From positions 1 to 64,000 of the forward strand of contig QPGO01000112.1 of the NCBI GenBank assembly GCA_008632985.1: DNA of 64,000 nt, written 5' to 3'. Below are positions 31,246 through 64,000 of this stretch, piece by piece. The stretch's first letter is position 1, and each line of letters opens with the position of its first letter. The notes beneath the pieces were generated by a model. That model saw only the letters and a list, made by a program, of their open reading frames with translations, was not told the DNA's origin and did not search any database. A program made the position numbers and the translations under genes. Source of the DNA: Psammoneis japonica. Its lineage: Eukaryota.

Positions 31246-31249
31246 CCGT

Positions 31250-31430: not shown

Positions 31431-31696
31431 ACTAGAGACTACATTGTACCGGTAGCTGAGAGCCTCTACTCAAGACTCAAGTGTACTGTAGAGCGAGTGT
31501 GTCGAACAGTCAGTACGAATTCAACAATGTATCACACGGCTCAATACCAGGGAGTTACGTACGGTACGGATGCTCTTGGTAGAAACATACGTGCATACGT
31601 ACGCGGCCCGCCGTCGTGCGTCCGCGTCCGTCGCTGACTGCATGGCGGCGGCGATTTGCGTTGCCCGTAAGACATCACTCTTTTGCTCCTTTCACC

Positions 31697-40188: not shown

Positions 40189-41224
40189 TATTCAAAACAA
40201 GAACCACTAAAAAAAACAAACAGCACAACGACGTCAGTATATTGTTGACAAAACCATATCAAAGAAACACAGGGCCGCTGTCTACAAATAATGCGCGGGC
40301 GAGAACCACGGAACAGCATCATGGGAAACTTCGGCAGCCGGCAGCATGATCACTTCTTTTGCGCTCGCACATCATTGACTCTACAACCAGTTCCTCTCCG
40401 AATCAAAAATCTGTGATAAAAGAACTATTCCATGCGTTGACAAGGCAGACACTTCAAAACACCGCAGAAGAAGCATCATCGTCGCATCCTCACCTTGCTA
40501 GTTTGTGAAGCTCAAATCTCTTTCAGCTCTACGTGAAAGCCAGTAGGCTTCCTACGTATTCAATCTGATCAAAGTAACCGGTACGCGGTACTGTAGACGG
40601 ATGAAGGACAGAGGACGTGTGGCATTTGTTTGACGTGCCAGGACAGACGCTTATAGATTAGTACGGGCGGTAGATCTAGAGATAGATCGCCATTGACGCT
40701 TCTACTCTTCTCCTCTACTCTAGAGAGTAGCTACTAATAGCCATAGAGCTACAGTACTCTAAGCTAGAGAGCAATCGATCTCTAACTAGACCCTACGACT
40801 TACGACCTTCTAACGAACTCTCTAGCAAATACCATAGAAGAGAGTATCCCCTCAAAGATACATTATTGGGTGAGCTCTGGTGTGCTTTCGCTCTGATCCC
40901 ACGTCTCTCACGTGCACAAAGTTCAACAGAAAAATGCTAAGCCAATGACTTCTGAATCTTAAAAATTGACAATGATTTCAAGAAGCAACGAACTCCTGCA
41001 GAGCAGAAGTTCACGAGCCTTCCTCCCTTGCCCGCGTTCTCATTCACTTGTTCATTAGCAGCCACCGTACAGTAAGTGACTCTAATTGACGAGAGAGTGC
41101 CCAGAAATCTAGCACCAGTCAAGCGGCACAATACTTCTACAATGAAACCAAATCAAATCCGAGAAGTGTCTTCGAACTATTTCTGTATTATCTCTTACCA
41201 AAGCATCGTAGGAAGGCTCACAAA

Positions 41225-42359: not shown

Positions 42360-45270
42360 AGACCCTACCAACCTCGACAAACTCCGACCCATCGGATGCG
42401 GCACCGCCATCCGACGCGTGGCTGGCGCCCTCACTATGACCATCAATGCGCCCGCACTCACGGAGTACCTCCTCCCCGATGGCCAATTCGGCACAGGCAT
42501 CAAAGGCGGCCTCGACTGCCTCATCCACGCCACTCACGCCAATGTCGAACGCCACCTCAACACCACCACACCAACCCACGCCTTCCTCACTCTCGACCTC
42601 TTCAACTTTTTCAATGAATGCTCACACGACACCTGTCCAGAGCTCCTCAACAACATGCCCGCCTTCAAACACCTTGTCCCCATCTTCGACCTGCACTGCA
42701 ACATGCCAAACACGTGCTGGTGCCGCGATCCAGCCGGCCTCTGGTGATCATTTCCCCAACCCAAAGGATTCTCGCAAGGGTGCCCACTCACCCCTCCATT
42801 CTCTGCCCCAGTCCTCAGCGTCATCCTCAAACAACTCAGTGCTGAACTCCGCCAACGCCTCCCATCCTCCAACATCACGTCAACTGCCTCCCTCATCGAC
42901 GACACCAGCATCTGGCTCCCGCACGCTGAACTGCCGTGGTTCCTACAACACCTCAAGGAATTGGGCCCTCAACATGGTGTCTGCCTCAATTGCTCCAAGA
43001 TGCACACACTCACCTCGACAACCAGCACCAGCCCCCTGCCAAACTTGCCCCCAGCAAGTGCCGACGCCCTCCGCCAAGCCCTGCATTTCCTTGACCCTGC
43101 TGACGATCCTGCCCTGCATCCCGAAATCACTGCTGCCCTCTGCTTCCTTGGCCAACCCATTGGCAGCCCCACCTTTGCCCACACCTGCCTTGAACAAAAA
43201 GCCGACACCTTCTGCACCAACCTCGACAGACTCTCATCACGCCTCCATGACACCCAAACCAAAAGCTCCCTCTGCCGCACCTGTGCCATCCCATCACTCC
43301 TGCACCTGCCAGTGTCCGACGTCCACTTCAACTTCAACCCAGACAACCCACAACCTCTCACTTCCTGGACTTCACCTTTCCAACAAGAGGTCCAACACTG
43401 CTGCAACACCCACCTGCAACATCTCACAGCGCAGCCACTGCCACTGCCACCGCACGCCACGCTCCTCGCCCACCTCCCAGCATCCTCCGGCAGTGGCGGC
43501 TGCCGATCCACATCCGCCTCCGCCATCCCCTTTCTCGTCTCTCAACTCACTCACTCCTTTCGACATGCAACACATGGACCGGCTGCAGGCCAGGACAACC
43601 CCCTCAAGCTCCCACCTTTCTACGCTCGCTCCCTCCGCACCTGGGCCACCTCCCGCCGCCCCTTGCACCTGTGTCAGGTCTTTCAACACTGTGGCAAAGC
43701 TGCCACACACACTCTCAACCCTCCCCCACCTTCCCTGAAAGCCTTCGTCAAAACGCACCCGCTGCGCAACCTTTCCCACACCCTCTGTCATGCACACTTC
43801 GAACATGCATGCTCACAGACCTCCGCCTGCATGGACCATCGCACGTCACCCACGCGCTCCCGTCCCTTCTCTCTCCACTCACAAGTCTCACCCTCCACTC
43901 CCAATGGGAATCATTTGGGTCCTGAGAGTCATCACATGGAAATTGTGCAGGAGAGTGCTAAAAACAATTGCTGTCAGTCTGTCCATCCATCCGTGTGCGA
44001 ATGTCAACTTCTCGGGAAATCAGTTGAAATGCTGTCTGATTGACGGCATTTTGATTCACACAGTGAAGGCCAATGCCGTCAATCAGACAGCATTTCAATT
44101 CAGTTCCCGAAAAGTCATTGGCTCTGATCACTCTCTCACATGACATTGTGCACATTTCCACACGATTTTGTGACCCATGCGACATTTTCGAATGATTCCC
44201 ATTGTTGCTCGCATGCCACCTCAACAACGCCTAAACCCTGAACAGTTCCGCCTGATGCTGCAACGCAAATTGCGGCTCCCCATCTCACCGAATCAACTCG
44301 CACCACCTGCCTCTTGCCCCTCTTGCTCCGGCACCATCGACCCATGCGGTGACCATGCCTTTTGTTGTCGATCCCTCGGACACAAAACAACCATGTCGAA
44401 CGCCATCCGCGATGGCCTCTGCGCTGCTTTCCAAACACTTGCTCCACTCTCCGGCATCTGTGCCGACTCTTCTGCCACACACCACGAACCAACCAATCTA
44501 ACACCTCATTCACCCCTCAAATGCCCTGCTGACGCAGGCATCCAGCCCACCCCAGCCGCCTCTGCTGCCTCCCCTCTTGGCCACTGACACCTTGCCATTG
44601 ACGTCACTGTCCCTGAACCTCCCCCATTGCTTGCTCCTGGCTTGCCTGCCCCCACTCTTGACCCTCATGCCGAGGCACACCACACGAGCACAAAACGGAA
44701 GTTCAACGGAACCCACGAGACCCAACACGAAGCAACCCTTACATCCGCCCTTAACAATGCCGGCATCCACCTCATTCCCTTTGCCATCGACCACCTGGGA
44801 GCTCCAGGCTACTTCACCCACTGCCTTCTTTTTGGCGCCAACCAAGACCTCCCCATCCCTGCTCCACCCGCCCCACCTTGGAACACTGAAACCTGTTTTC
44901 AACACCCAGCTGCCCACGCCGCATGTGCCTGCGCCCAACAATCCCCATCTGCCATCCTCCCTGCTGCCACCGCCACCTGGCAAACCATCTCCGCCGAACG
45001 CTTTGGCCTGACCCACCACTCCTCAACACCGTCACAATGGGTCTGCAGAGCCCAAGCCTCGTGATCACCAAATCGCTCGCTGACCAACCAACCCACTGCT
45101 CCACCAAACTACAATCGCAAACATCAAACCCCAACTCGAAATCCATCCCTTTTCCTGCCTGCATGACTCCGTTCCGCCATTGCCCCGCGTCTGTCCCTTC
45201 CCCCGCGCCACTGGGTGACGTTGCACGTGAACTTCGCGCGCGCACTGCTGGGCAGTTTCCCTGGTCTAAC
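42360..45270 (+). mobile_element. 5'-truncated RLE-type non-LTR retrotransposon (RT + zinc knuckle + RLE), TA-depleted, interrupted by a MITE
   Basis: KLRPIGCG, GQFG, LTLDLFNFFN, QGCP, SLIDD, CPSC...GDHAFCC; 3' kb closely similar to 1-1060. Confidence 0.85.
43902..44204. mobile_element. MITE-like element with 14-bp TIRs and internal 27-bp hairpin
   Basis: TIR caatgggaatcatt / aatgattcccattg; perfect arms 44024-44050 and 44072-44098; related to 16931-17264. Confidence 0.82.
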
Positions 45271-45961
45271 CAATGGAATCGATCCTTGCTCGCTCCACTC
45301 TCCACTCTAGCTAGAGCTCTGCTGGTGCTCTCTCTAGAGCTAGAGAGGGACAGCATCAATGCTGGCATCGCACCTGACAGAGAGCAGGCAACCGCTCTCA
45401 CACAGGTCTTTCGATTGTGGCAAAAAATCAATGTTGGTTCCTCCTCTTTTAGGTGGAACTCTCTAGATCGAAGTCTGAAACCGAAAGATTTTGGATTGCC
45501 GCCCTCACTGCTGTCAGAAAACAGAGCCATGACGATTGCCTGCACCAATCATTTTGATGCATTTTGCGCCGGGCATTCGAATTGATTGCAACACATGACG
45601 GTTGTTTCAGTGCGCACTTTTGCGCGACCCACGCGACATTGACTGACATGCATCAGTGCGTGGTGCTGGTTGTTTTGCTTCTGACCGTTCTGTCTTCTGT
45701 GAGGTTTCATGAGGCTGTCTGTGCACATTGATGTTGTCCAGTTGTGCATGTTGATGTTGTCTGAGGCAAGCTGCGTTGCATCAAGTGAATGTGGAAATGT
45801 GCAAAATTTACGCATTGTTGCAGTTTCTTTGCCAAATGGTTGGCCCTCATTCATTGCCATGCTCAATCCGCGGCGGCTTGAGTGAAAGTCCATGTGCATG
45901 TGTTTTGCGCATTGATGCGGTTGTCTTTGCTGAATGGCCATTTGCAATTTGCTCAATTCCA

Positions 45962-46480
45962 TCATTTCTGGCCACACTTCTTCTGAAGGGACTTTGCTTG
46001 CTCCTTCTCCTGCTCCGCCATCTCCTCCTTGGTGAAAAATCTCCCCGACCGCTGTGGAATCACCGCTGCATGTGCTGCCTTTAGCTCCTCCATGGTTGAA
46101 TCATCCTTGGGCGCAACCGTTGTTTCCACATGATGACTGTCCGCTGTCGTGTTGTCTTGCACAAGCACAGAAGTGACATCAAAATTTCCCGAGGCAAGGT
46201 CAAACGCCGCTCTTGCTTCTTCCAAGGTAATCTCCTCTTCGTCTTCCTTGTTCATCAATGACTGAAGAAGTTCCGCACGTGTCTGCACCTTTTTCTTGTC
46301 CTCACCAGTTTTCTTTGGCTCGTCTGCCTTCTTTGTTTGTTGCTGCAAATCCATGTTTTCTCTGTTGCTACGTTTTCTGTGACGGTTGCGTTCGCGTTTC
46401 TTGGTTTGTTGGTTAAAATCCATTCGACGTTGTGTGATGCATGTGCAGATTTCTGCGCAATGTGCTGACCCAATCGACAC
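45962..46480 (-). CDS. Hypothetical charged protein downstream of the Rep-helicase (TA-depleted)
   Basis: 172-aa ORF, Lys/Glu-rich, co-oriented with helicase; no family recognised. Confidence 0.35.
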   Translation of the reverse strand: MSIGSAHCAEICTCITQRRMDFNQQTKKRERNRHRKRSNRENMDLQQQTKKADEPKKTGEDKKKVQTRAELLQSLMNKEDEEEITLEEARAAFDLASGNFDVTSVLVQDNTTADSHHVETTVAPKDDSTMEELKAAHAAVIPQRSGRFFTKEEMAEQEKEQAKSLQKKCGQK

Positions 46481-46569
46481 ATTTTATTTTACGAAATTTC
46501 CGCATTTTTACGGTTGGGGTCGCCAAACAGTTGCACAGTGGTTGAGCATCCTAATCTGATGTTTGGGTG

Positions 46570-49500
46570 CTACATTGGTGTTTCTGCGCACTGTTGCTGA
46601 GAAAAATGCGTGGCGCTTCTCTCCTTCATGAGTCTCATCAAGGCTTTGTAGCCTTCTGGGACCTTGTGTTTTCGCAGGTCCTTGCTCAGTGGCTTTCGCA
46701 TGAACAGCCCTTCTCTGGTCTTTACTCTGGAGAGCACAACGTGCACCCAATTCTGAGTGTAGCTCCAAGAGTGTGCAAACAACTGCGGGACTCCACTCCC
46801 TTGCAGTTTGTGCCCTGCAGTGGCATTGTTGATGACAAACGGCAGCTGGGTTGCCTTCAGTTGGAAAGTGTGCCTTTGTTTGTCGCCTTCTTCTAAAACT
46901 AGGCTGGGCTTGGCGATGCAAGCCCTGAAAGTGTTTGTTTTTGGCTCAACTAAAAACTTCGCGGGGTCGATGCTTTTGTTGCAGTGTTCCAACACAACGT
47001 GGTCTACCTGACTGGCAAGTGCAGCAGGAATGCCAATGTTGTTGTCTAAAGTTGCTGGTCTTGGTTCCTGTCCTGGTTTGAGAACGACCTTGTCAACAGT
47101 GGCTTGCGCTCCGTTTGCTTGACCGTTTGCTGCATTTTTGTTGAAAGGTGTCATGACTCTGCATCTTCTGTAAATTCACAAGACTGGATCCATTCTTCCT
47201 GATTGCATGACAACGTCTCCTTCACCACAGTTGTTCCAGAAGCTGTTGCAAACCGGAAATGGTTGGCAGAGTCTCGTGCCATTCTGTGCCTGCAAGTCGT
47301 CACTGAAAATCAACATTGAGTCAAGGACGTGTCCATCTCTTCTGTGCAGTGTTTCTGCTCTTTTTTCGAACAGGCCAGTGTCAATTGCATCTCTGTCCTT
47401 ATTTGCACACGCAGCACAGCGGAGGTCACTGGGCAGATCATCTTCGTTCTGAACTGCTCGTTCGTTGATGCACTCTATGTCGTCAACTGTGATCTTGCCA
47501 GTGCGGAATCTCTCAAGCAGTTTTCCCCATGATGGATCGTCTTCAAACCTGTGTGCACCACGAAGTTCTGTGTGGCAGTTGATCCACTCGTGAAACTCGG
47601 GACATGCATCTTTGTGTGGTGGTTTCACTCCTTTTCTGACTGGTTCTAGTTGCCTGAGGTCACCTGCGAAAACAATGTTGACACCACCGTGCGGCTTGCT
47701 CAATTCGCTCTTCAATGCTGTCAAATTCTCATGGAGTTTTTCTAGTTCTCTCTTGCTTGCAAAAAAAATCTCGTCTGCCACCAAAAGTCTCGTGTCTGAC
47801 CATGCTTCAATTTGCTCTTCGGTCATTTGCTTTCTTCTCATGAGGCATGCAACTCGGTGGATTGTGTCCCCTTTGAGATCAGTCGCAGCCACTCCGGTCA
47901 GTGCAGTTGTTCTGATTGTGCTTGTTGTGAACGGCTGCTCAACAAGCGAGCAATGCTCTCTTCCGCATTCCACGACGAGGTCCATTGTGGTTGATTTGCC
48001 ACTTCCACCTGCACCATGTAAAAAACACACAAGTTGCAACGTTCTACGTCTTTGCACTTCCACGAGTTTCTTCAATCGGCGAAGGTTTGTTGCGAACTCG
48101 TGTCTGCCATTTCTCCTGTTGAGTCCATTGCGTGACGTCTCGTCTTGAAGAGCGTCTTGGCAGTGAGTGAGCACAAAGGTTCCTGCTAGAATTTCAAAGG
48201 CACGCTGCTGTTGCCCATCCAGTCTTGCTTTCCTGGCCCAGTCTACAACACTTGCTGCAGATCCGTTTGCTTGACGCACATCGACGTGTTCTTCCAAACC
48301 TGTCACATCCTCAAACGACCTTCTTGTTCTTTGCTTTCTAGTCAGCATCACTCGAACAATGTCATCTCTTGACAGTGGTCTGCTGTGGATGTGTTGTTGC
48401 ACTCCTTCATTCTGGTCTTCCTCGTCGGTGTCATCGCCGCCCTCTAGATTCTCAAAAAGTTGTCGTTCATTAACCTGGCTTTCCTCGTTTGGTGGGTCAG
48501 TGTGCATGTCTGCCAAGCATTTGCAACCACCCATGTGTGGGCCTTTCTGTCTTGCACGTTCACCGCTCAAATGCGCAGGAACAACTGCTTGGTCGCTCAA
48601 CCCAATGTCATCGTCTTCTGGCTGCTCTGCCATTTCTTCCAAGAGTGCATCCAGCAGTTGACCCTGAACGGCACCTGAGAGACCTTCTTCCTCGTCACTT
48701 TTGCGACAGTCAAACGCAACGTCAGCAGGTCTAAATTGCTCCGTCTTTCTTTGCAGATCGTCAGATGCACTTTTGAGACGAAGGCAGTTGGACCCAGCAT
48801 CCTGTGGGTTCTGCAAGAAGTTCAAGTTTTCCTTTGCAACAACACCGGCTGCTGCGGAGAGTTGGAATTCACGCAGGCATGCATGGGTTGTTGGTTTGAG
48901 TTCCGTCATTGTTCTGCAAGGCGCAAACAAGGCCAATGCCAACTTGCAGCACAATTCTTTGTCTGGTGTTGTTGGTTGCTGCGGATCTACAAGGCAACTG
49001 CCAAACTTGGCTGCATCAGGAAAATCACACTGAAGTGCTTTTGACAATCGCGGTTGCTGTCGCTGTCTGACACCTTGAAGAAACTTGTTCTTCGTTGAAT
49101 TGTGAGACGGGTGCCTGTGCGCTCTGTTGTCGAACATCATCATGCCGTGTTCGTTTTTCCTTGTGTTGCGAAGAACTTCGCACTCACTAAAAAACGCAAA
49201 CAGACTGAGATTCTCCAGTGCTGTTGGACGACATGGGCAGTGCAAGGCCTGGCATTGGAAGAACGGTGTGTCGCCAAAACAGGCTGCAGTTGCAGACACT
49301 TCGTCTCTTTCTAGTGTGCTGACAATGTCTTTCAAGGGGCACCATGCGGTCAAATGAGATTCGATGAAACGGCTTCCGTTCCTTGTCATGTAAGACGCAA
49401 GTGGTGGTCCAATGACGTTCGTCTTGTCATGCGAGCAAGCACCCCACATGAGACATCTGATTGCTTCCAATGCATCAGATGCATGTTTCCGTAATTCCGT

Positions 49501-52221
49501 CGCTGTCCTGTTCGTAGTTCGAAGCACTTCATCGTACGATGCAGCATCATCTTTCTGGGCATCTTTTAGGATGCACTTGATCGTGCATTGAGCAGATGGT
49601 CCAGGCATCAATGAAGCAATGTTTGTGTTGCATGTCAGTTTTGATCTGCTCATTGCAGGGCACGACACGTTTTGAAAAGCATCGCACTTTCTCCTCTTCG
49701 GAACAACTTCCTTCATGCACCGATGCGCAAAAGTTCCATCCCAGCTGAACCACTTTATCTGAGTGTCATCTGCATTCCTTGCTGAATCATTTGGACATGA
49801 AGCAGCTGGTTGCCTGTGACGGCAGTCACCTGGTTTGAGCTCCTCTCGTTTCCTTTTCCTTGACTGCGTGTCCAGTTCCTCGTGTGGGTTTTTTTTACGC
49901 ATTTTACGCAACTCTGCGCATTTGGGAAAACACGACTTCATAACGTGCATGTGATGGTTGTAAGCTGCGTCCGGCATGTGTGCCTCTGTTGTCCCTTGCG
50001 GACCACTTCGCTGGCATTGTACACACATTGCTTTTAGTCGCTTTGCGTGGTCATCTGGATGGCGAGTCAGGCCAGGTGCACGGTGCCGTGACTGTAAAAA
50101 GCTTTCTACAAACTCGACGTTTGTCCAGCACTTGGTGCAGTGACGACAACAAGCAAACATTCCGCTCTTCGACTGCTGGCCGTCTTCATGCCTCAGGTTT
50201 CTTAGCTGTTGGTTGTCTGCTGCTTTTGGAGAGGTGTGACACATTTTTGGTGCTGCACAGTCATGATCGAATGCTTCACGCAACGTGTTGGTGCTGAAGT
50301 CCTCGCTGCAGATTAATTCCATGCTGCAGATCTTCTGAACTGTGTTGGCAAGGCACTCAGCACCTTCGCGACGGATCTGTCTTGTTGGGGAATGCAGTTT
50401 CTCTCTTGCATTGTTGATCGATGCAAACCAGATCTGCATGTGTCCGTGTGCTGTCAGACGTCCCTGCTCCTCAACTGCGGCTAAAAATGCGGCTGGCCTG
50501 CCAATGTAGAAGTTAAAGTTTTCTCTTGGTTGGTTGGCACTCAGATCCCAACCCACTGCCTCTTCTGTTGCAATGTCAAACAAGCACTCAAATGCAAAGG
50601 CTGTTAGACCAGGAAACTTTAGATGCAGTTCATTGCGTTGCTTGGCCCTGCCAGCAAGAATTTCGTCCGTCAGTTGTGTCACGTCTTTGTTTGGGTCTAG
50701 GATGAAACCCGAGCACAGTTGCACAAGAAACGAATTTGCATCGTCCGCACTGACGGTTAAGAAAATGCCACCCTGACCAAAATGATGCTGACAAGTTTTG
50801 GCGTTTCTCCTCATTTTCTTTGCTGCTTCGTTGCTGTGTGGCAGAGACGCAGATGCAACGTCGAGTGCACACAAAAAGTGGTGCCCGAGTCCACAATCTC
50901 TTCTCTTGCCCAAGTTGCTGTCACAAACAGCTCCATCCACATCGTCCACTGTTGGTTCGTTTGCAAACTGTGCAGCCTGATTCTTGTCCCTGACTTTCCA
51001 CCCTGCACTCTGTGGCATCCTTTGCTTCATTGTCAAGTTGTGGCACATTAACACGAAGAGCTGCTCGTGGAAGTGAGGCTGGGAAATCCGTGCCAAGTGG
51101 TCGGCACAGTGTGCAAGGTTGGTGCTGTCTGTGAGACTTCTGTCTTTCTTCATTCTCGTCTCATTGATTCCTCCTCTGCCAAAAGGAAACTGCAGCAGAC
51201 ACGCGCCAACGAAGTTGTTGAATTTGAAATCACTCACAGATTCTTTGGACAACTGTGCTTGCACCTCTAAATCAAATCCGTTGGCAGCAGCTTCGTGTGC
51301 AAGATCTTTGAAGCAGCCCAGGTTGCACTGACCACCAGTTGCAGGAGACATGGTTCCATCAGGAAAGCAAACATGAAATGACTCTGAGGTCTCAACATTC
51401 GCATTTTCTCCTTCTTCTTCGCTGGTGCTGTCGACAAGTGCGGGATTCCGCAGATTGCGCCCAACTTCGTCTAGATTTGTCTGTTGGTGCACCCACTCTT
51501 GGTCATGGTGCAACAGCCATTCCATCGCCCTTGGCATGTGGTGCGCCCCAATTCTGTTCTTTGAATGTGCAAGTTGTCTTTGCTCCGGAGTCATCTTTCC
51601 AGTCATCAGTGCAATCACATTCTGATGTAAATTCAGTGCGTCGAAGTGCACAACAGTTCTTACGATGCTTTGCATCTTGACTTTGTAGCACGTCAGACTT
51701 CCCTGGAGCTTCTTCTGTTTGCCGCCAAGGCAACTGAAGCAGCACCCGCATGTTTTCACTGGTGTGAGCATTGCCAATTCTGCTTCGGTTGGAGACAACA
51801 GTTCGTGCGGCGGGGTGCCGAAACAGCAGTTGTTCGCTGTCGCGTGCATTGGCACAATGGCTCTTCCCAGGCTTCTTCGGCATTCGCTGCAGCAAGTGAA
51901 TCCGTCGACGCGTCGTCTGTCTTCCTGCACCACGCATTGGGCGCGGGGAGAAAGTGGCAGGTCTTTGATCCAATCAGCATCTTCATGCTCTACAGTGCAG
52001 CAGGACTTGAGACGATCAGATGCGCTGCTCCAGTCTGAAGGGGTGAGTGAGTTTCTTGCTGATTCCAGTGTTTTGAGCGGCAAGTGGCAAACTTCTCTAG
52101 GTTTCAGCAGAACGTCACAGACTGAACATGCGTGTGGTCTAAATTCTTCATCTCTGTGTGGACAAAGCATCTCAAACTTTCCATTGATTGCACTGCAAAC
52201 ACGGGAGTTGGCCTTGTCCAT
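46570..52221 (-). mobile_element. Helitron-type Rep (HUH endonuclease)-PIF1 helicase gene, mutated
   Basis: 1681-aa ORF: IFLTVS (motif 1), EEQGRLTAHGHMQIW (HUH), QCTIKCILK (Y..KY motif with Y->C), GAGGSGKS, VADE, FAGDLRQLEPV; ORF 46570-47154 adds HKLQG and WVHVVLSRV. Confidence 0.85.
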
Positions 52222-52349
52222 TTCAATTTAAGCTGACACTTCAACTCAACAAATTTCAAGAAGTTGCTCAGTGAAAACAGTTGTTTTTTCAGTGCGATCA
52301 CCGTGAAGCTGCGATCGGCGCCATCCAATCACCACAGTGATGTGTGTTT

Positions 52350-52990
52350 TCTCACCACCTGCAGCACTGCGACTGGTGTCGTCCAGTCACCGCAGTGGTT
52401 CTGTCTGGTTGATCAACGAACCGCATCGGTGCCATCCGTTCACCGCAGCGCCGTGTCGTCTTCTCACAACCTGTGCAATCAGGTCGCTGTGAGTGCTGCG
52501 ACTGGTGCTGTCCAGTCACCGCAGCCGAGTCAATCAGTTGCTTGACGAACTGCGTCGGTGCCACCCGATCACCGCAGCGTTGTGTCGTGTTCTCACAACC
52601 TGTGCAATCAGGTCTCTGTGAGAGCTGCGACTGGTGTCGTCCAGCCACCGCAGCTGAGCTTGTGCGTCATCTCACAACCTGCATCATGAGGTGCAGTGCT
52701 GTGTTGTTTGCTCACAACCTGTGCAATCAGGTCACTGTGAGAGCTGCGACTGGTGTCGTCCAGTCACCGCAGCCAAGTGAACCAGTTGCTTGACGAACTG
52801 CATCGGTGCCATCCGATCACCGCAGCGTTGTGTCGTGTTCTCACAACCTGTGCGATCAGGTCTCTGTGAGAGCTGCGACTGGTGTCGTCCAGTCACCGCA
52901 GCTGAGCTTGTGCGTCATCTCACAACCTGCGTTGCCAGGTCACTGTGAGAGCTGAGAACTGCGATCGGTGTGGCCCAATCACCGCAGTTG
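52350..52990. repeat. Complex tandem repeat upstream of the Rep-helicase
   Basis: ctcacaacctgtgcaatcaggtc...gctgcgactggtgtcgtccagtcaccgcag units at ~52463, 52592, 52712, 52840 plus partial units; separate 54-bp duplication at ~53143-53247. Confidence 0.85.
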
Positions 52991-53789
52991 GATGCTTTTC
53001 GTTTCCCTTTGCGCAAAGGTTCTGTCACAAAAAAGTGAGACGAAAGTGTGCCTCTTTCACCTCGACGGAAGAGTGGCGTGTGTGTTCCTCCCACGTCCTT
53101 CTTTGTGCCAGACGTGTGACACCCTGCTCAGTTTCGTTGACGTTGAACATCCCATGGGACAAGATTTGGATCTTGTTCAAGTTGTTTCGACCATCTGCTC
53201 TGAACATTCCATGGGGCAAGATTCGGATCTTGTTCAAGTTGTTTCGGCAATCTTGGTGGTGGGCGCAGCTTTGCGCAAATTCCGCAGAATCACGCTTTGG
53301 CGAGTGGTGGGGCAGTTGAGTTAGTCGTGTGGCAGTGACAACACGATTGACATCATTCGTGTTTCCAAAGTGCGCGCGAATCCTCCAAATGGGTGATGGG
53401 CCCACCTTAGCTAACTGCCGGTGCAGCAGTGACAGTGATGGCGTTGACCGTTTGGTGACTAGATTTCGTGTGCGATGGCCGCGCGGCAGTGACGGCTGAA
53501 ATGCACATGAAGCACGGACGGAATTGCACGTGATTTTACGCATTTTCAGTGAACTTGGTGCGACTTTGCGTGCTCCGATCCTTGCATCTGTTTTGTTCAA
53601 ATTGAATCCACACACCACTTGCAAGTGCTGACACCTGGAAGGTCACCTTGTTGCAGTTCGACGTGTTTGGATCTAGTTGCTGACGTTGCCAGTTCTCCTT
53701 GGCATGATGTGCGCAGCTCTGCTGGGTCTTTCTTGGCACTTCTGAACGATCGCACTTTTTGTTCCCACAATTTCTCTCCGACTGATTTG

Positions 53790-54662
53790 ATGGCACGCAA
53801 AAGAAACACAATGACCTCCCCGGCTGCGAAAGCCAAAGTCGCCGAAACCAAACAGAAGAAGGCAAAGACGAAGTTTTCTGATGCTCTGTTGAAGAAACTG
53901 GGTCCACCCCGCAAGACCAACAGCTTGACCGACGACGACCTTAAACCGGAAGACTGCCTTGCCAAGCACGGGTTCAAGCTTTCCAAATCCGCCGGCTCTG
54001 ATGATGGCAGCCATTCCGACAAGGACGCCCTCCTGCGCTGCGCCACCATCACTGTCGGCCGCAAGAAAGGCGTCGTTTTTCGTCTCCAAGCCAAGAATCC
54101 CCTTTTGACCAATGTTTGGTCGGAGAAGGTTCTGTTTGATGACCATCGCAGCAGGACTCCGTGGGCGGTTCAAGTTGGATTCCACCCTTGTGCTGGCAGG
54201 TGGGTTCACGAAGGCGAGTTGCAGACGAACGCCAAGAACTGCGCCGTGCGTCTCTTCTTCATCTTCCTCGAAGAAGTCCCAACCGATGCCAAAGTGCGCG
54301 GCCTTGGGAAGCACATTGCAAAGCAGCTCAATGATGACCCTGAGAACAACACCAAGGTCTTCGTTGAAGACGACTTCTTCTGGATGAAGGATGCTGTTTG
54401 GTCCAAAGTGATCGGCAACGAGGCGGCGCTTGCCGAGCTTCAGAAGGAAGGTGGTCAGTTTCACATCGGTTGGTGCGCCCAAAACAAGAACTTGCTTCAC
54501 AGTTGCTTCTACGAGGGGTCGTTGCCTGTGGAACTCTGTCGTCTCATTGGAGCTCCGGTGAAAGAAGCTGGAGAAGAGGCCGACAATGATGTCGAGCTCA
54601 ACTGCGAAGTTGACCTGAACGTCAATGACGACTTGGTGCTTCAGGACAGCGACGAAGACTGA
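53790..54662 (+). CDS. Hypothetical protein (intronless, TA-depleted, probable TE cargo)
   Basis: ~290-aa ORF from ATG, basic N-terminus, acidic C-terminus; no family recognised. Confidence 0.5.
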   Translation: MARKRNTMTSPAAKAKVAETKQKKAKTKFSDALLKKLGPPRKTNSLTDDDLKPEDCLAKHGFKLSKSAGSDDGSHSDKDALLRCATITVGRKKGVVFRLQAKNPLLTNVWSEKVLFDDHRSRTPWAVQVGFHPCAGRWVHEGELQTNAKNCAVRLFFIFLEEVPTDAKVRGLGKHIAKQLNDDPENNTKVFVEDDFFWMKDAVWSKVIGNEAALAELQKEGGQFHIGWCAQNKNLLHSCFYEGSLPVELCRLIGAPVKEAGEEADNDVELNCEVDLNVNDDLVLQDSDED

Positions 54663-54881
54663 GTTGTTTTTTTTTTGCCGGCGCAGTGTAAATTTGCAAA
54701 TGTTCAGCAAACTGAGTGTCGATTGCAACTCAGCTTTCCTCTGTCTCTTCAAGTGTGTGCCATCTCCGACGACAACTTGTCGTTGCCGCGAAGCAATGGT
54801 GAATTGAGTGGAGCAACTAGCGTGTGACGTCTGGCACAGTGATGGCAAAAAAACAGCTCAGTTGAGTTCTTAAGTAAAATT

Positions 54882-57800
54882 TGCAGCATGCCTCGCCACT
54901 GGACAACACGGCGAGACCGTGCACAAGCCTCTTGTGCGTGGCAACGCAGCATTGTTAACACGCACCTGGGAAGCACGACCACAGGAGGGCGTGGCTCTGG
55001 GTCTCAGGCAATTCCAGAAGGATGCCAAGAGAGCATCCGTGTGAAGCACACTGGCCCGTCGTCTGGCCCATGATGGCAGCGTGATTCCACACGATGACAT
55101 CACTCGTGCATGGCGCGTGATGGCTTGATTCGCACGATCCACAATGCGAACGCACGATCGATTTAATGCGATCCAAATGCAAACGAATGGGGATTTGGCA
55201 AGATTCCCCATTCGCACGATCCCATTTTCTCTACTCCAAACCAGCTCACAATTTTCACAACGACAAAGTCGCAGCACATCTTCTTTTTCAGCGCCCAGTG
55301 CATGCATGGGGCACAGCAACATCACTCCCGCACATTGTGCCAGGTGACGAAATCTGCAGAAACGAAACTACGAAATGTTGGTGGGACCGACAAATCTCAA
55401 AACGACCATGAAGAAGCGGATTGAGCCGCCGATTCCGTTCGCACGGCCGGAGAAGAAAGAGCTGCAGCAGGGCAAGTGCCAGACGTTCAAGCTGCGTAAC
55501 AACCCCGCTGATCCGGACAGTCCAATGCACGAGATGGGCATCCCGTGCCTTTCTGCGGCCACATGCGAGACACTCCCAATCTTTCTGCGCAACGTGGATC
55601 GCGTGCACGAAGGACAAAACATCGCGACCGGGCCAGCGAAATTTGCCCTTGTGCGTGACTTGCTGCAGGGCGATGCTCTGACGTCATTTGACAATGCCGC
55701 TGACAAGCAGGCATCCCAAACCAACGCCACGTGCGCAGCATGCGTCGCGAAGCTAAAGGAAAGCATCTTCCCAAATGGGGCGGTGCTGCTGCAGAAGCGT
55801 TGTCTGCGGCGCTTCATGCGCAAGCCCGCAGAGGTTTCTACTCGTGACTACGTCGCGAGGGCTGTTGAAATTAACGGCTATATCTCTCAGTTTCCACCCG
55901 TGACGGAGGATGGAGAAACACCGGCACCATTACCTAATGACGAACTATGCGATGTGTTCGAGTACGGTGTGCCGAACGCGTGGCAGAAGTTCATGACGCT
56001 ACAGAATTTTGACCCGTTGGCGCATACTATCGCCGAATTTGTACAGTTCTGCGAGCGCATCGAGCAGGTCGAGCTTACCGAAGGTAACCAGGACCAACAT
56101 ACTAAGGTTCTACGTAAGTAGGGACGTAGAATGGACAATCTTGAGTCGTTGATCACGACCCAGCGGAACACCCAGAAGTCGTGTATGCTACACGGGACTA
56201 ACTGTGGACATGATACGGAAGATTGCCGTCAGCTCAAGCACCACGTGAAACGTGTCAAGACTGGACATTCCAATAACGGAGGCGGCAAGCCTAATACAAA
56301 ACCTCGGAATGAGGAAGATATTAATACTCTCATCGGATCGAAGGTCGAGGAGTACTTTGCCAACGCTCAGAAAAAGCGTAAGGCCCGCGAGGAGGAGCTT
56401 AATCACTTCCGCGACCTCAACTTAAGTGATTCCGAAGATTCGGACGCCTGAGAAGGGGGCCGACACGATACAGGTAGTTTTAATACATTAGATGAATGTA
56501 TAAATGAACAACTGAATTACCATCGTACACGTGTTGTAGGCCAATCCCGTAAACGAGTTAAAAAGACTCATCTTACTCCAATCTTGTTTGTAGCTATGAA
56601 TACTAAACATGGCAAGGGCAAGACTCAAACTATTAAGGCACTACTAGATAGTGGCGCTAGCAGTACTCTACTCGATAGTCGATACTGTAAACGTCTGCGA
56701 AGCCATTCAACGGCTGAGACAAACTGGACTATGTACATACGGTAGCAGGCTCGTTTAGTACGTCTAACGACTGTACCGTTAAATTTCGGTTACCAGAATT
56801 ATCCGAAACTGCAGAACTTAAGCATACCGTCCACGTACACAACGGAAAGTTGGGCAAGTACGATATGATTATTGGACGTGACATTCTGGAGACACAAGGC
56901 ATTGATATTGTCTTCTCTAAACAGATGATAGAGTGGCCATTAGTCAATGGAGAAGTACCAATGAGGCACGTAGATGCTACGGTGGAAACCTCCTTCTATC
57001 TTCAAGATCCAGAAGCCTTATCTTCGGAAACCGACCGGATTTCGCGTATTTTAGACGCTAAGTACGCGCCGGCCTGCCTCGAGGACATAACGCGAGGGAC
57101 AATAGGACTTTCTATAGTTCAACAAAACGACCTTTTGGCACTATTGAAACGCCATGAGTCCTTATTTGATGGGACATTAGGAGAATGGAAGGGAGAACCC
57201 TACCATATCCAACTCAAGGAGGGTGTAGAACCATACCACGCTCGTCCGTATAAAGTACCTCGTGCGTACGAAGCTACGCTACGTAAGGAAGTAGAGCGCC
57301 TAGTACGTATCGGTGTTCTCAAACGCGTTAACCGATCCCAATGGGCAGCTCCATCATTTATCATACCGAAGAAAGATTTAACGGTACGCTTTATTAATGA
57401 TTTGAGAGAGCTGAATAAACGGATTAAGCGATTGCCTTATCCGATTCCTCATATCCAAGATATGCTACTTAAGCTCGAAGGCTTTATGTGGGCTACATCG
57501 CTGGATTTAAACATGGGCTATTATCATATCCGATTGGATACTGATAGCAAGAAGCTCTGCACGCTCAACTTCCCGTGGGGCAAGTATGAGATGCAGGTAT
57601 TGCCCATGGGATTATGTAATTCGCCAGACATTTTCCAAGAACGCATGTCAGGCTTATTTGAAGATCTATCGTTCGTTCGAACGTACTTAGATGACCTTCT
57701 CGTCGTGACGAAAGGCACCTATGAAGATCACCTCAACAAACTTGAAGAAGTTTTATTGAGGGTCCAGAAAGCAGGACTAAAAGTCAACGCAACTAAATCT

Positions 57801-60190
57801 CACTTCTGTCAAACCCAATGTTAGAACACTTGGGTTATCTGGTTGACAGAGACGGAATACGACCAATGCCTGATAAAGTCGACGCCATTAAGCGAATCGC
57901 GACGCCAACCAACAAACGCGACCTACGTTCATTCATTGGCATGGTGAACTGCTGCCGCGACACGTGGATTAGACGTTCTGAAGTCTTGGCTCCGCTGACA
58001 CGACTCGCAAGCGCGACTGTCAAGTGGGAGTGGACGTCCGTTGAAGACGAGGCGTTCGAAACCGTTAAACAGGTGACATCGGATGATGTTTTGTTGTCAC
58101 ATCCTGATTTTAACAAACCCTTTGAGACACATGCCGATGCCTCTAAATGTCAATTGGGAGCAGTTGCATCCCAAGATGACAAACCTGTCGCCTTTTGCAG
58201 CAGGAAGCTTGACAGTGCACAACCAAATCATGCAACAACGGAGAGAGAATTGCTCGCCATTGTGGAGACGTTGAAAAAATTTCGAACGATTCTCCTTGGT
58301 CATCGTGTGATCATGTGTGCTGATCACAAAAATCTTACATGCAAAGCATTCAACACCGAGCGCGTCATGCGCTGGCGGTCAACATGCGAAGAATGCGGTC
58401 CCGAATTACGCCATGTCAAGGGTGCCCATGGCCCAGTCGCTGACGCTCTTGGTCGCCTTCGACCAGCACCCAGCTTGCCTTCCGAGGCCAATCCGGATGT
58501 AAAAGACACTCCATCGAGTCGTCCTTTGCATGAAGCCTTTAACACAGACGCTCAAGATGAGCCATCTCTGCCCATCAGCTTCAAGCGCATTCAAAAAGCA
58601 CAACAAAAGGACAAGTGCCTGCTCTCAAGAGCTGAGGACTCATCTGACTGCTCCATTCGCGCGCATCGTGGGGGAGGGTCATCACGACAGCCAATCTGTC
58701 ATAAGGACAAAATCGCAGCACCACAGTCATTGCAGGTTCCGCCAACTGAATGGTGCCACGAGACACTGTGTCATCCAGGTGAGACACGCACGGAAATGTC
58801 CATTGCCCAGCACTTCTGTTGGCCCAGCATGAGGTCTACGGTGCATTCTACGTGCGTCAAGTGCGATCAATGCCAGAAGACAAAACGCCGAATGCAGCGT
58901 TGTGGGAAGCCACCAGAAAAGGTCGCAGAGACAATTCCATGGGAAACTCCATGCATGGACATGATGGGGCCACATAAAGTTCAAAGACGCGGAAAGGACA
59001 CCTTGCAATTGTGGGCAGTCACAATGATTGACCCAGCAACCGGGTGGTTCGAGATTGAAGAAGTGTCTACGAAACGCGCAGACGTCGCAGCAAACGTCGT
59101 GGAACAAACGTGGCCATGCAGATGTCCGTGGCCAACCCAGGTGGTTTATGACCGTGGGACAGAATTTGTGGCAGAATTTAGCCAGATGATTAAAAATGAC
59201 TGTGGGATTTTGAAGAAACCCACAAGCAAACGGAATCCACAGGCAAATGCCATGGTGGAACGTGTGCACCAGACACTTGGTAACATGGCACGTTCCTTTT
59301 CAGCACAGGATGTGGAACTGGACGAAGATGACCCATGGAGTGGCATCCTCTCCGCAGCAGCCTTCGCTGTTAGAGCTGCGGCACACACGACCACGCGTGC
59401 AAGTCCCATGCAATTGGTCTTCGGACGCGATGCGGTTTTGTCTGTTGCCCATCGTGCTAAGTGGAAGTGCATAGAAACCAGAAAGCAGAAGCTTGTCCAC
59501 TTAAACAACAAGTGTGAAAATCAGAAATGCAAGGAGCATCAACACACCGCAGGGCAGTTGGCACTTGTCAAACAGGAACAATCCTCTAAATGCAGTTCTG
59601 ACAGCTGTGCAGGACCCGCCAGAGTTGTCCGTGCATGTGACAACGGCACGTTGCGTGTCCAGAACGGAGCGCTGACAGATGCGTGTGATCTACGGCAGAT
59701 TGTGCCCCATCACCAGCAAGACATTCTGTCACTTAACGGCCCTGATCATGGGGGAGTGTGCAGCATGCCTCGCTGCTGGACAACACGGTGAGACCGTGCA
59801 CAAGCCTCTTGCACGTGGCAACGTGGCATTGTCAACACGCACCTGGGAAGCACGACCACAGGAGGGTGTGGCTCTGGGTCTTGGGCAATTCCAGAAGGAT
59901 GCCAAGAGAGCATCCGTGTGAAGCACACCAGCCCGTTGTCTGGCCCACGATGGTGGCGTGATTCCACACGATGACATCACTCGTGCATGGCGCGTGATGG
60001 CTTGATTCGCACGATCCACAATGCGAACGCACGATCGATTTAGTGCGATCCAAATGCGAACGAACAGGGATTTGGCAAGATTCCCCATTCGCACGATCCC
60101 ATTTTCTCTACTCTAAACTAGCTCACAATTTTCACAACGACAAAGTCGCAACACATCTTCTTTTTCAGCGCCTGGTGCATGCATGGGGCA
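54882..60190 (+). mobile_element. Full-length Ty3/Gypsy LTR retrotransposon
   Basis: 432-bp TG...CA LTRs at 54882-55313 and 59759-60190, 4-bp TSD AATT, PPT ggggag; gag 55408-56451, protease LLDSGAS, RT YLDDLL, RNase H DAS, integrase HPG/DRGTEF/NPQANAMVER in Gypsy order. Confidence 0.95.
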
Positions 60191-60194
60191 AATT

Positions 60195-61048
60195 GGCTGT
60201 TTCACGACGGGCAAATGCTTCCGTTCCAAGTGTGTCGGAGTGGGACGTCGCATGTGCTGGCTGGTTGACTGAGAAGTCTCCTCTTTCTTGGTGCACTTGT
60301 GGAAGATGAGATGTTTCACGTCTCCGCTGTGCCACAAAAAGTCGCCATCATGGCAATCCGCTGTGAAGGACTCGCACATCCACTCTCCCGCATGCGACGC
60401 GAACAGCGGATCTAGCGCCACCACCACGGTCCCAGCACGACACAACTTCGAAAGCATCGCCTCTGCCTTCTGCTGTGTGTTCTTGTCGTCGACCATGCGG
60501 GAGTTGCAGTTGTTGAAGAACACCTTGAGTCCTTTCTTTTTCCACAAAGGAGCCAGCCTCTCGTCCAAGAATGACTTGTTGATCAACTCTAACCCGCCGT
60601 TCGAGCAAAGGCCAGCACGATGAGCCCAACGTACAGCCTCTTGGTGATGATCGTGGTCGGCCTCGATGCTCACCACGGTGCAACGGCGACGAAGTAACTT
60701 GAGCCCGATGCTGGGTCCGGCAACCCCCCCGCCCATGTCGACAGATGTGTTGCAGGTGTGATTCACACCAAGAAGGCGTTCGTTCAAAAACACTTCGCTG
60801 CTCAAAGCGAAGCCAACTTCGCCGCCGTGCAAAGATCTGCTTCCGTCTCCGGAGACACGCCTGCTCTGGAACGCGGAGTCCGGAGCCGTTTGAAGACAAA
60901 ACTCCCTGACACTTCTGCAATTGTGGATCATCGTATCCAACCTTGTGGCAACATCAACCTTGCTTGCAGCGGGTTCGACCAGACGTCGCGTTTCCAAACC
61001 AAACTGTGACGTGTGCAGAATGTGTAAAATTGCCGTCGCGCCCTCCAT
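60195..61048 (-). pseudogene. DOT1-like class I SAM-dependent methyltransferase (mutated; 3' end abuts the Gypsy insertion)
   Basis: LHGGE (cf. YGE), VDMGGGVAG (motif I), VSIE, LINKSFL, KVFFNNC (cf. DOT1 VIFVNN). Confidence 0.6.
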
Positions 61049-61342
61049 GCATGCGAAATTTTCAAACGCGGCATGCTGCCTCTACCTGTGTGTGGAGTGA
61101 CATACAAAGTCATTTTAAACAGATGTGTGGACGCATTGAAATGACAAGACGCCTTCAGGCGATAAAATTTGTTTTGAATCTCGGCCTGCTTCTCATCGTC
61201 ACCGCACTTGTACATCCGTGTAATTCAAATGCACGAGCTGGCATGGCACGCGACGCACTTCTACGCGAGAACTCGCACTGAGATTGCCGTGGGATGATCC
61301 TCCCTCCGCGGAGACAAAAACAACGCGACAACACTTCCGTCA

Positions 61343-62812
61343 TTGTGTTTTGAAACACATTTCAAATTGAGACACACCATGTTGCAACTGCCTCGTGCCT
61401 CGCTGCGTTGTCCTGCCAACGACAAGCACTTGTCGCGATCGAGTTACAGCCGGTCTCGACAGTGTGGGGGTTTGGGACGTGCAGCTCGCAGCCCAACAAC
61501 AAGCAAGTGCTTCTCGCGATTGGGTTTCGACCCCACTCCCCTGGAGTCTGCCGGTCCCTGTCAACAGAGTTTTGCTTTGGGTGCTCTTGAGGCAACGGAA
61601 AGCAGACACATCTCTCGATCAGGTTTTGACCCCACTCCCCTGGAGTCCGCTGGTCCCTGTCGACAGAGTTCTGCTTTGGGCACTGTTGAGACGACAGCGA
61701 CAGTGTCAAGCAGTGGAACATTTGCCGGCAAGTTCGCACACACGTTCTCTGCGAACACCGCATCGTCAATGCGCACCAGGACATGCGAGAACGTGTTGAG
61801 GGCTCAACCGCCACTTCGCAAGGCCCACCGCAGCTGCAGGCGAATCCGCAGCCACGCCAGTGGGAAAACATCCAAGATTGCTCGCCTCGTTCCACTCGCA
61901 CCGTGCGCCACTAAGAGTCTCTCCATGCACTGCGTAGCTGACCGCACTCTAGTTTGTGACGGCGACTACACTCAGCCTGCACCACCTTGTCTTGCTGACA
62001 TTGACTTTGCCGAATTGGCTCCTCTGGTCGTCTGTGACCCTGTGCTCGATCTGAAGCCTTTCTTTGGCTTGGACGGTTGCCGCTGCGACAACACCTGCAC
62101 CCTGCTGCCGCGTTCTGCTGTGGTGTTCAGCTCCCCCAACCCAGCAGAACTAGTTGCTCAGTGCTGAGCGCTCGAAGCACTAGATTGCTGCACCGCCCAG
62201 TCCACCGTGCACGGCAAACAACGCGTTACCTTCATGGAGACGGACAGGAGCAAGCATTCCACGATTGGCCTGGCTGCCATGAGAGACGCTCGAATTTCTT
62301 GCAAGCAGCCTGGCATGGCCGACCAACACACTCACCACCTCACCAGACTTCTTTCACGCATGGAGCACCTTGTCAATGAGTGCGTGGACCATGCCATCCT
62401 CAAGGGTGTCGCTCGTGTCAAAAAGTTTCACAACTGGAAATCCCTGGCACGGTCAGATGGCATTTTCTCCTCTCTGGCGGCTGGGCGCAATGTCTTCCTC
62501 AATGCCCATCGGGACCAGGACTTCTTCCTGTCAGTGGTCACCATGGTGGGAGTCCCTCCGTCCGGCAGCCACACCATGAATGATGGGATTGTGGCGTGCT
62601 TCTGCTTCCCTGCCGAAGGCATCTCCGTTGCACTCCGGCTTGGTGATGTCATCATTTTTAACCCCACCAAGTGCCACCGCATCTCCAGCAGGACAAACTC
62701 AAACGACGAGTTCTTCTGCGTGTCTCTCTACCTGAAGAGTGCTGCAGTGGGCAAGAGTGACAATTCAATCCCCCTTTCTCTAGAGGAAGAGACCATTCTC
62801 AGGCGACTGTGA
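61343..62812 (+). pseudogene. 2OG-Fe(II) dioxygenase, TET/JBP-like C-terminal domain; one in-frame TGA at 62165-62167
   Basis: LNAHRDQDF (HxD), FCFPAEGISVALRLGDVIIFNP..H, CVSLYLK; ORFs 61343-62167 and 62207-62812 share a frame; ~99-bp internal duplication at ~61510-61695. Confidence 0.55.
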
Positions 62813-63034
62813 CAGTGCAAAATAACTTGCTAAATTTGCGTAAATTTGCTGACTTTCTGTGCTCAGGCGACTGTGCAGGCACCTGCCAATTTGCTGGATT
62901 TGCGCAAATTTGCCGACTTTCTGTTCTTCCTCGTTCCCATTTTTCGAACCACAACTGGGGCTACGCCTTTCCAACCAATGCTGCAGTTTCGCTGAAAAAC
63001 ACCAACACACTGTGCTGCTAATTTACAGAGCACA

Positions 63035-64000
63035 CTACACGGCAAACGTTTTGCCAGATGCAGAGCTTCTCCCCCCCGACTTGGGGAGTAGACGCGATTT
63101 CTTCTTCCGATTCATGGCACCCGACATCGCCTTCCTCTTCTTCTTCTTCTTCTCCGATTCGTCCAAGTTGCATCTGCAGAGAAATTCCTCCCCGGGCATG
63201 ATTCGCTTCGTGACTGCCAAGCACCCGTCATTGTAGAACTCGCAGTTGTTGTCTGCGTGTTGGCTTGCCTTGATCTTCTTCTTGTCCTTGAACGACTCGG
63301 TGGCATCGTTCACGCAGTGCATTCCGAGGCAGAGTGGATGGGAATTCTTGTTCCCTGGACTGCTAAAATCAAGCAGTTTTGGCTCCACTGTGACGTGGCA
63401 GCCCTCACTGTCATGGATGGTGGAGCAGCACACGCTGTGGTCTTCTCCAAACTTGCTGTCGTGGTCGCACCACGAGCAGCTCCTTGTCGCACCGGGCACC
63501 CTGGGGCCCACGTAGATTCCAACCATGCTGCCTTTCTGGAACTGGCGCAAAGCAAAAAAACCAATGCCTGCACCCCTCCGTTGCGACACGCGCAGCTCAC
63601 CCACCTCCACCTCCTTGGGGCCTGCGGAGCGAATGGACTTTTCGAGGCAAAACAACGCAGGTTGAAGTGACACGGCGCCTCATCCAAATGTGCACACTTC
63701 TGCACTTGCTCTCTTCATGAGGTGGACCAGTGTGAGCAACCACCCCGCTTCGAAAGCCTCAACGGCGGTCTTGAACACTTTGTTGCTCTTCGGCGTCGAG
63801 TCTGGGATGCCCCTCTTGCCGACTTCCGTGCGGCACCTCCACACCCACTTGCAGTGTTCGCCGTGAGCATTCGCGACGGCTTCAGGGTCGCTCCTGATGC
63901 ACCCCAGTTCTCCCAGCACGGGGAACCAGAGGTCGGGATCACTCGGCGCATCCTTCATCAGGCACATGGACTCCTGGAAATTATCGGATTTTTCGTGCCG
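63035..64000 (-). pseudogene. SET-domain lysine methyltransferase (mutated; may start outside the window)
   Basis: GAGIGFFALRQFQKG...IYVG, GMHCVND, NNCEF, VTKRIMPGEEFLCRC (terminal Tyr->Cys); upstream ORF 63680-63967 in the same frame. Confidence 0.75.

Follow-up and report, generated by a model that had tools for sequence, protein, structure and literature searches.

A full-text literature search for hypermutation of TpA to CpA or TpG yielded one report, the preprint of Mettrop et al. (10.64898/2026.01.13.699255), which in 2026 gave the first account of TpA-directed hypermutation of foreign DNA, in a single chlorarachniophyte, Bigelowiella natans. In this alga, de novo changes of TpA to TpG or CpA arise at approximately 6e-7 per site per generation, the targets being a virophage region and an integrated giant-virus region that proved to be single-copy; the mutator was active in 11 of 15 lines, 124 TpA-depleted clusters were found genome-wide, and an ADAT2-like deaminase is the proposed candidate enzyme (10.64898/2026.01.13.699255). 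Here we describe a stretch of 64 kb (positions 1 to 64,000 of contig QPGO01000112.1, Psammoneis japonica; hereafter the window), which carries a scar of the B. natans type at saturation in the transposons of an apparently different algal lineage. The window probably records a TpA mutator of this recently described kind in a lineage other than B. natans. Inside one Ty3/Gypsy element (54882-60190) lies an island that kept its TA sites, and it serves as a built-in control, with ancestral sequence beside mutated flanks and a process that is all-or-none at the scale of tens of bases; given the whole genome and long reads, it would let targeting be assessed as regional, guided or episodic. The explanation that we favour for the island, with a probability of roughly 0.4, is that recombination or gene conversion brought it in from an unmutated sister copy.

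The changes of the B. natans type in the window are almost solely T to C or A to G at TpA, yielding CpA or TpG, and they lie in clustered depleted blocks. The dinucleotide signature is identical in the two cases, the outcomes CpA and TpG being mutual reverse complements, and both show clustered blocks depleted in TpA and enriched in CpA+TpG; the preprint uses observed/expected cut-offs of <=0.43 and >=1.52 (10.64898/2026.01.13.699255), and the corresponding values in the window are 0.02-0.25 for TA and 1.3-2.0 for CA+TG across 5-25 kb and 43-64 kb, the island excepted. The gene-bearing 25-42 kb gives 0.45-1.14 and 0.8-1.4, respectively. Among the depleted genes of B. natans, reverse-transcriptase and transposase domains are enriched, and the affected DNA is unannotatable and degraded, as in the window. 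The two cases differ in that the scar in the window is near saturation and lies in Gypsy, Helitron and unidentified repeats, all carrying the same TA depletion, rather than in giant-virus or virophage inserts, in that doublets in the long terminal repeats (LTRs) of the window directly show action after integration, and in that the preprint describes no unmutated islands. The mutated targets in the window include Gypsy and Helitron, and all stretches assessed by contig depth proved to be repeated, so that no mutation of single-copy DNA was observed among them.

Repeat-induced point mutation (RIP) resembles the process in the window as a defence-like hypermutation of transposons at one dinucleotide, which acts on integrated DNA, leaves skewed blocks and keeps unique DNA intact. 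The direction is different, since RIP changes C to T at CpA and makes TpA, whereas in the window TA is lost and CA and TG are gained; moreover, the process in the window makes no stops, so dead elements keep long open reading frames (ORFs), and its dependence on repetition is unsupported.

An unmutated island of about 2 kb within a hypermutated Gypsy element had been proposed in an initial annotation made from the sequence alone, and our analysis bears this out: 55839-57924 has normal TA density, and hypermutation of its flanks at TA is confirmed, with TA making up 4-5% of the TA/CA/TG sites there. In a three-state hidden Markov model (HMM) run on TA versus CA/TG sites, this is the only segment assigned to an unmutated transposable element in approximately 41 kb of TA-depleted DNA of the window, the depleted segments being 2-1632, 5226-24960, 42480-55829 and 57930-63996 (TA share 0.016-0.055). 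Within the island 155 of the 388 TA/CA/TG sites are TA (0.40), and at a rate of 4.5%, 155 or more TA among 388 sites have a binomial tail probability of 4e-102. In the rest of the Gypsy element, approximately 95% of the TA dinucleotides are gone and present as CA or TG.

Both borders of the island are sharp and in register. Counted per 100 nt, TA amounts to 0-1 over 54901-55800, 4-13 over 55801-57900, 2 over 57901-58000 and 0-3 thereafter, and residual TA shows no gradient approaching the island. Change-point analysis gave a support interval of 55801-55849 for the left border and of 57886-57987 for the right; the left step falls between the Tyr-to-Cys codon at 55801 and position 55839, the right one between 57924 and 57950, each thus taking less than approximately 40 nt, and the gag frame runs continuously through the left border. 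A fading of TA over 57825-57950 had been described earlier; a more fitting description is a step, from the last dense TA at 57924 to two Tyr-to-Cys codons at 57950 and 57953.

The same borders can be read from tyrosine columns in protein alignments, which were built for pol from 40 full-length homologues among the best 120 of 1830 matches (best identity among those listed, 59%) and for gag from 60 homologues among the best 150 of 1704 matches; a pol Tyr column was defined as Tyr in at least 50% of the 40 homologues. The tyrosine counts of the initial annotation were essentially right, as the reverse-transcriptase ORF has 14 Tyr in 368 residues from stop to stop (12 in 319 from the first Met), and few Tyr occur beyond the island, where the RNaseH-integrase ORF has 2 in 664 residues, with 31 Cys and 25 His. 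Tyr is retained in 9 of the 11 Tyr columns of the reverse-transcriptase ORF, the remaining two, Trp and Met, being weakly conserved columns; from 57950 onward it is retained in 0 of 21 (14 Cys as TGY, 6 His as CAY, 1 Ala). In gag, the Tyr-majority columns up to 55801 read Cys, His, Cys, Phe and Cys (55477 Cys, 55528 His, 55546 Cys, 55801 Cys), and those at 55849 and 55879, inside the island, are still Tyr. The proposed Tyr-to-Cys change at 55801 holds as well, with Tyr in that column in 34 of the 60 aligned homologues and TGT as the codon here. One position at the right end of the island does not fit, namely 57827, which is CAC and is Tyr in 40 of 40 homologues. The island has a Tyr content of 3.8%, compared with 3-4% in homologues, in agreement with the earlier suggestion that it shows the ancestral TA-rich state.

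The two LTRs of the element differ at 26 bases, 16 of them in eight CA-versus-TG doublets, together with three TA-versus-CA, five CG-versus-TG/CA and two other differences. The doublets are explained by independent T-to-C or A-to-G hits taken by each LTR at a common ancestral TA, and mutation therefore acted after integration: a TpA mutator worked on the integrated DNA of this Gypsy copy. Template switching is common in retroelements, and a switch of the reverse transcriptase between co-packaged RNAs of mutated and unmutated copies, before integration, would give sharp in-register borders of the kind seen at the island. We consider such a mosaic very improbable, since LTRs are identical at integration and the present pair carries eight CA/TG doublets and three TA/CA sites. 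If concordant sites are as numerous as discordant ones, approximately 80% of the LTR TA sites were hit after integration, and so active a mutator should also have hit the 155 TA sites of the island.

Enzymes of the APOBEC3/ADAR group likewise produce deaminase-type, context-specific transitions in retroelement sequence, and ADAR prefers a 5' U (as cited in 10.64898/2026.01.13.699255). These enzymes act on cDNA or RNA before integration and on one strand, whereas both outcomes are present side by side in the window, each LTR took its own hits, and the mutations extend to DNA transposons and flanking repeats. On account of the independent LTR hits, the presence of both outcomes and the affected Helitron, ADAR-type RNA editing and cDNA editing were ruled out.

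Other copies of the family were sought in the Logan contigs of four runs (X1-X4) from one sample, aligned to 54000-61000 at >=80% likeness. Of 30 bins, runs X2, X3 and X4 cover 4, 13 and 4, respectively; contig depth reflects copy number only roughly, and for run X1 the details come from 40 of the 443 differences and 20 of the 6492 contig pieces. In run X1, 6406 contigs fall on the stretch, 1303 of them with a likeness of >=99%, 1793 with 95-99%, 2448 with 90-95% and 862 with <90%; counted by place, the differences from other copies comprise 423 transitions and 15 transversions. Summed over nine bins each, depth reaches approximately 13,200 in the island and 17,900 in the flanking interior, a ratio of 0.74, whereas approximately 3,000 is seen outside the element. 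The private alleles of this copy stand at a depth of approximately 45-55, whether they lie in the island (57425, 56119) or in its flanks (55474, 58071, 58431), and the depth across the element is approximately 200-400 times as high, which points to hundreds of family copies, from which the island region is not missing.

In fungi, RIP spares unique sequence, and the initial annotation had proposed that a RIP-like mutator needing a homologous partner left the island untouched because other copies lack it, with the prediction of a drop to one copy and deletion breakpoints at the borders. The somewhat lower depth of the island bins relative to the neighbouring interior is in its favour. No such drop was seen by contig depth, rough proxy as it is, with thousands of contigs over the island at 74% of the flanking depth and approximately four times the depth outside the element, and no joint skipping 55839-57930 was present among 15 of the 43 deletion joints. 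In addition, two contigs of run X1 that leave the alignment at 56729, without the 8 bases that follow in this copy, have CA at all 5 of the TA sites in 56738-56767; they belong to another copy, in which the island region is thus hypermutated, and this region has no intrinsic immunity. At 59254, TA is present in 99% of X1 depth and TG in this copy; this one site is a hint that many family copies are unmutated in the flank region, that is, repeated and yet unmutated. Equal copy number inside and outside the island was the refuting result named in the initial annotation, and as the depths point that way, the homology-dependent model is close to refutation by its own criterion, and we regard it as most improbable; the single-copy target in B. 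natans (10.64898/2026.01.13.699255) is a further point against it.

The hits at 56738-56767 in the other copy, where all five TA in 30 nt became CA, also hint at strand-coordinated, processive action. In the Gypsy copy of the window, unlike in that segment, CA and TG outcomes are intermixed.

A sequence nearly identical to part of the island was found in run X2, where a contig of 494 nt matches 56079-56508 with 4 differences in 430 nt and the TA state kept, and shows 9 differences in 62 nt over the mutated leader. This contig is without four of the island's own alleles, and a full donor was not seen among the contigs examined.

The island has alleles and coding damage of its own. At seven sites it differs from 94-100% of X1 depth, its own alleles there having a depth of 0-152, roughly that of a single copy, and all seven private changes are C or G to T or A, with no A to G or T to C. 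In the flanks there are five private CpG changes to TpG or CpA and at least five A-to-G changes at non-TA sites. The private ordinary changes are similarly dense in both parts, with 7 in 2.09 kb of the island and approximately 15 in 3.2 kb outside it. The island also carries an in-frame stop in gag, past which the gag homologues extend by approximately 130 residues, and two insertions shift the frame (Table 1). The stop, the frameshifts and the minority alleles speak against selection for a working reverse transcriptase and against an artefact of consensus polishing. Selection on a domesticated reverse transcriptase was rejected in view of the private TAG stop and both frameshifts, and synonymous TA are kept too. 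The TAG at 56119-56121 is itself a CpG changed on both strands to TpA, which runs counter to the process that destroys TA.

Replacement by a fresh copy had been mentioned earlier as one alternative, and in our analysis it is the best explanation of the island. To hypothesize, a Gypsy copy would have inserted into an older repeat, after which a DNA-level mutator changing TpA to CpA or TpG would have hit the integrated copy until approximately 95% of its TA sites were lost. An unmutated sister copy, one of many, would then have supplied a new central 2.1 kb (55839-57924) through ectopic gene conversion, a double crossover or recombination with cDNA, and the mutator may by then have been inactive at the locus, so that the patch keeps all its TA sites. 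The signature, the action after integration, the stepped borders, the abundance of the island region in other copies and a near-identical unmutated sequence are all observed here; the replacement event and its timing we infer from them. It is the combination of sharp borders on two sides, an all-or-none state, no other hole and many possible donors that favours replacement after an episodic burst. Ectopic and cDNA-mediated gene conversion between retrotransposon copies is known, e.g., in yeast Ty1, and shares with the island a kilobase-scale tract in register, sharp ends and many homologous donors. The mutator of B. natans is episodic (10.64898/2026.01.13.699255), so a patch could arrive after a burst.

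Several points weigh against this replacement. No donor with all the island alleles was seen in run X1, and seven island sites have a depth like that of a single copy. The similar density of private changes inside and outside the island would not be expected if the bulk of copies had been the source of a very recent conversion. Unlike in known cases of conversion, donor and recipient would have been approximately 7% or more apart at the time, which usually hinders conversion. From the B. natans figures (211 mutations, 6169 TA, 3132 generations; 10.64898/2026.01.13.699255) we computed approximately 1e-5 mutations per TA per generation, a rate at which 155 TA would not long be untouched, so that replacement requires a mutator that has stayed inactive at this locus from then on. 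Finally, among 20 of the 6492 contig pieces there is none that links the island to its flanks in one molecule.

Somewhat less likely than replacement is that the island escaped in situ, the whole copy being of one age and the mutator being aimed at both outer parts but never at the central 2.1 kb, either because the source of a guide RNA or DNA was without the central segment or because the chromatin state differed locally. Ordinary private substitutions of similar density and the same single-copy-like depth inside and outside suggest such an equal age, and the kinds of private change also favour escape, as the seven in the island include no A to G or T to C while at least five A-to-G changes at non-TA sites occur in the flanks; the B. 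natans mutator, too, discriminates more than 1000-fold between target and non-target regions (10.64898/2026.01.13.699255). A chromatin boundary or spreading from the flanks is a poor fit to borders of less than approximately 40 nt with saturation up to the edge, and the segment corresponding to the island is hypermutated in another copy. The residual TAs in depleted DNA are not clustered (shuffle p 0.12-0.38) and there is no second island in approximately 41 kb, which means that the mutator does not usually leave holes. The CA/TG skew does not differ either, being +0.16 left of the island, +0.09 right of it and +0.08 within, and a model based on the direction of transcription is without support. 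Spreading from the flanks and targeting of the transcribed strand were accordingly given no support by residual-TA clustering or by CA/TG skew.

A more specific form of such aiming, improbable in our judgement, would make the island the footprint of a TpA-editing defence guided by homologous nucleic acid, whose ends set base-pair-sharp limits. If this is true, the guide set for this copy would be without the central 2.1 kb, and an adenine-editing, guide-dependent counterpart of RIP would exist in a second eukaryotic supergroup, in a red-plastid alga distant from Bigelowiella.

Replacement in the genome has also to be set against a switch in the assembly, in which the contig would pass for 2.1 kb to an unmutated copy or haplotype of the family and then back. 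The family is very abundant, which makes mis-joins easy, only 0.45 of the 31-mers sampled from the stretch occur in run X1, the letters of the window at 56111 and 56379 are in no X1 contig, and a contig spanning a border is absent among the 20 of 6492 pieces. We nevertheless think an artefact unlikely, since it needs two switches within one element of 5.3 kb, both in register and with the frame kept across the left border. The island is not the bulk consensus, having minority alleles at seven sites, five of which are present in X1 at a depth of 45-152; both frameshifting indels are real variants common to much of the family, and no indel private to the window is among the listed X1 differences.

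The features of the element are collected in Table 1. Its identification as Gypsy in the initial annotation was right, with the Pfam domain order gag, protease, reverse transcriptase, RNaseH, integrase, and, besides this order, a complete Ty3/Gypsy element is indicated by the TG...CA ends of the LTRs, the polypurine tract and the target duplication, although no primer-binding site could be recognised. The element is embedded in TA-depleted DNA. Two contigs of run X1 (depth 187) carry an empty-site joint 54876->60190, with 5313 nt skipped and 5 ambiguous letters, and this joint, together with the AATT duplication, marks the element as having inserted in a simple manner into another repeat. The flanking DNA (54000-54881 and 60191-61000) is itself repeated, with a summed contig depth of approximately 1,800-3,900 compared with approximately 50 for single-copy alleles, and also exists without the insertion. 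By blastn and tblastn no further Gypsy copies were found in the 64-kb window, an Rfam scan of the window gave 0 matches, and an exact 26-mer from the island gave 0 matches to metagenome contigs.

Table 1. Coordinates of the Ty3/Gypsy element, its unmutated island and the lesions within it.
Feature	Position	Strand	Basis
Target-site duplication AATT	left 54878-54881, right 60191-60194	.	sequence reading
5' LTR, 432 nt, TG...CA ends, TA-depleted	54882-55313	+	94% identity to 59759-60190; 3 TA, 54 CA, 33 TG
Hypermutated leader and N-terminal gag	55314-55838	+	0-1 TA per 100 nt
Island: C-terminal gag, zinc-knuckle region, protease, reverse transcriptase	55839-57924	+	HMM, change-point analysis
In-frame TAG stop in gag, nearly private	56119-56121	+	X1 depth: C at 56119 1599/1644; G at 56120 1556/1644
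Reverse-transcriptase ORF within island	56718-57821	+	Pfam RVT_1 PF00078, E 5.7e-25; 63.7% identity to homologue P0001
8 extra bases, protease/reverse-transcriptase frameshift	56730-56737	+	left out in 998/8690 depth (~89% share them); tblastn frame change 56730-56739
2 extra bases, reverse-transcriptase/RNaseH frameshift, ~105 nt inside right border	57819-57820	+	left out in 2203/6245 depth (~65% share them); tblastn frame change 57812/57815
Hypermutated RNaseH-integrase part	57930-59758	+	Pfam RT_RNaseH_2, RT_RNaseH, Integrase_H2C2, rve
Polypurine tract	59750-59756	+	sequence reading
3' LTR, TA-depleted independently of 5' LTR	59759-60190	+	base differences from 5' LTR

According to the codon table, a change of TA to CA or TG removes TAA and TAG and cannot make stops, and the depleted blocks are therefore full of long spurious ORFs. 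A practical warning follows, namely that gene finders will call the very long frames that persist in dead elements. A Helitron-type frame on the minus strand (47176-52227; Helitron_like_N and PIF1 helicase domains at 47179-52227) is open for 1683 residues with TA nearly gone. For nine long frames of other TA-depleted blocks, including the two longest of 12001-24960, Pfam gave nothing above the cut-off, and a frame outside the depleted blocks (3679-5025) has only weak RING-type Pfam matches. Block 12001-24960 is low both in TA (observed/expected 0.02-0.12) and in CpG (0.06-0.28), with CA+TG at approximately 1.7-2.0, and the remaining TA-depleted blocks retain CpG at 0.4-1.1. Only block 12001-24960 seems to have undergone a second process, a decay of CpG such as cytosine methylation would cause. 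Tandem or direct repeats occur within TA-depleted DNA at 52316-52930 (unit approximately 129 nt) and 61494-61691 (approximately 99 nt).

Seven host genes were recognised in the window, encoding bL28, a Prp17-like WD40 protein, uL14, ribonucleotide reductase, PRPP synthetase, a NUDIX protein and a DUF1275 protein. In a protein atlas, the ribonucleotide-reductase piece could be placed to family but gave no informative taxon, and clusters of six Gypsy homologues from NCBI and of uL14 yielded neither names nor accessions. The bL28-type gene (31583-32261, plus strand, Pfam Ribosomal_L28) has two exons, and the signal peptide encoded by the first has an ASAF-type motif at its end. We take this motif to be typical of algae with red-derived plastids, and the signal peptide suggests a host with a red-derived complex plastid. 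Each of the seven genes has approximately 0-2 interruptions, whereas B. natans has a mean of 8 introns per gene (PMC13746701, Table 1). Intron number and signal peptide both indicate that the host is probably not B. natans. Apart from the island, the only TA-rich segments of the HMM are two intergenic stretches at 30977-31600 and 40530-40864 (TA share 0.57-0.60), both in the gene-bearing region.

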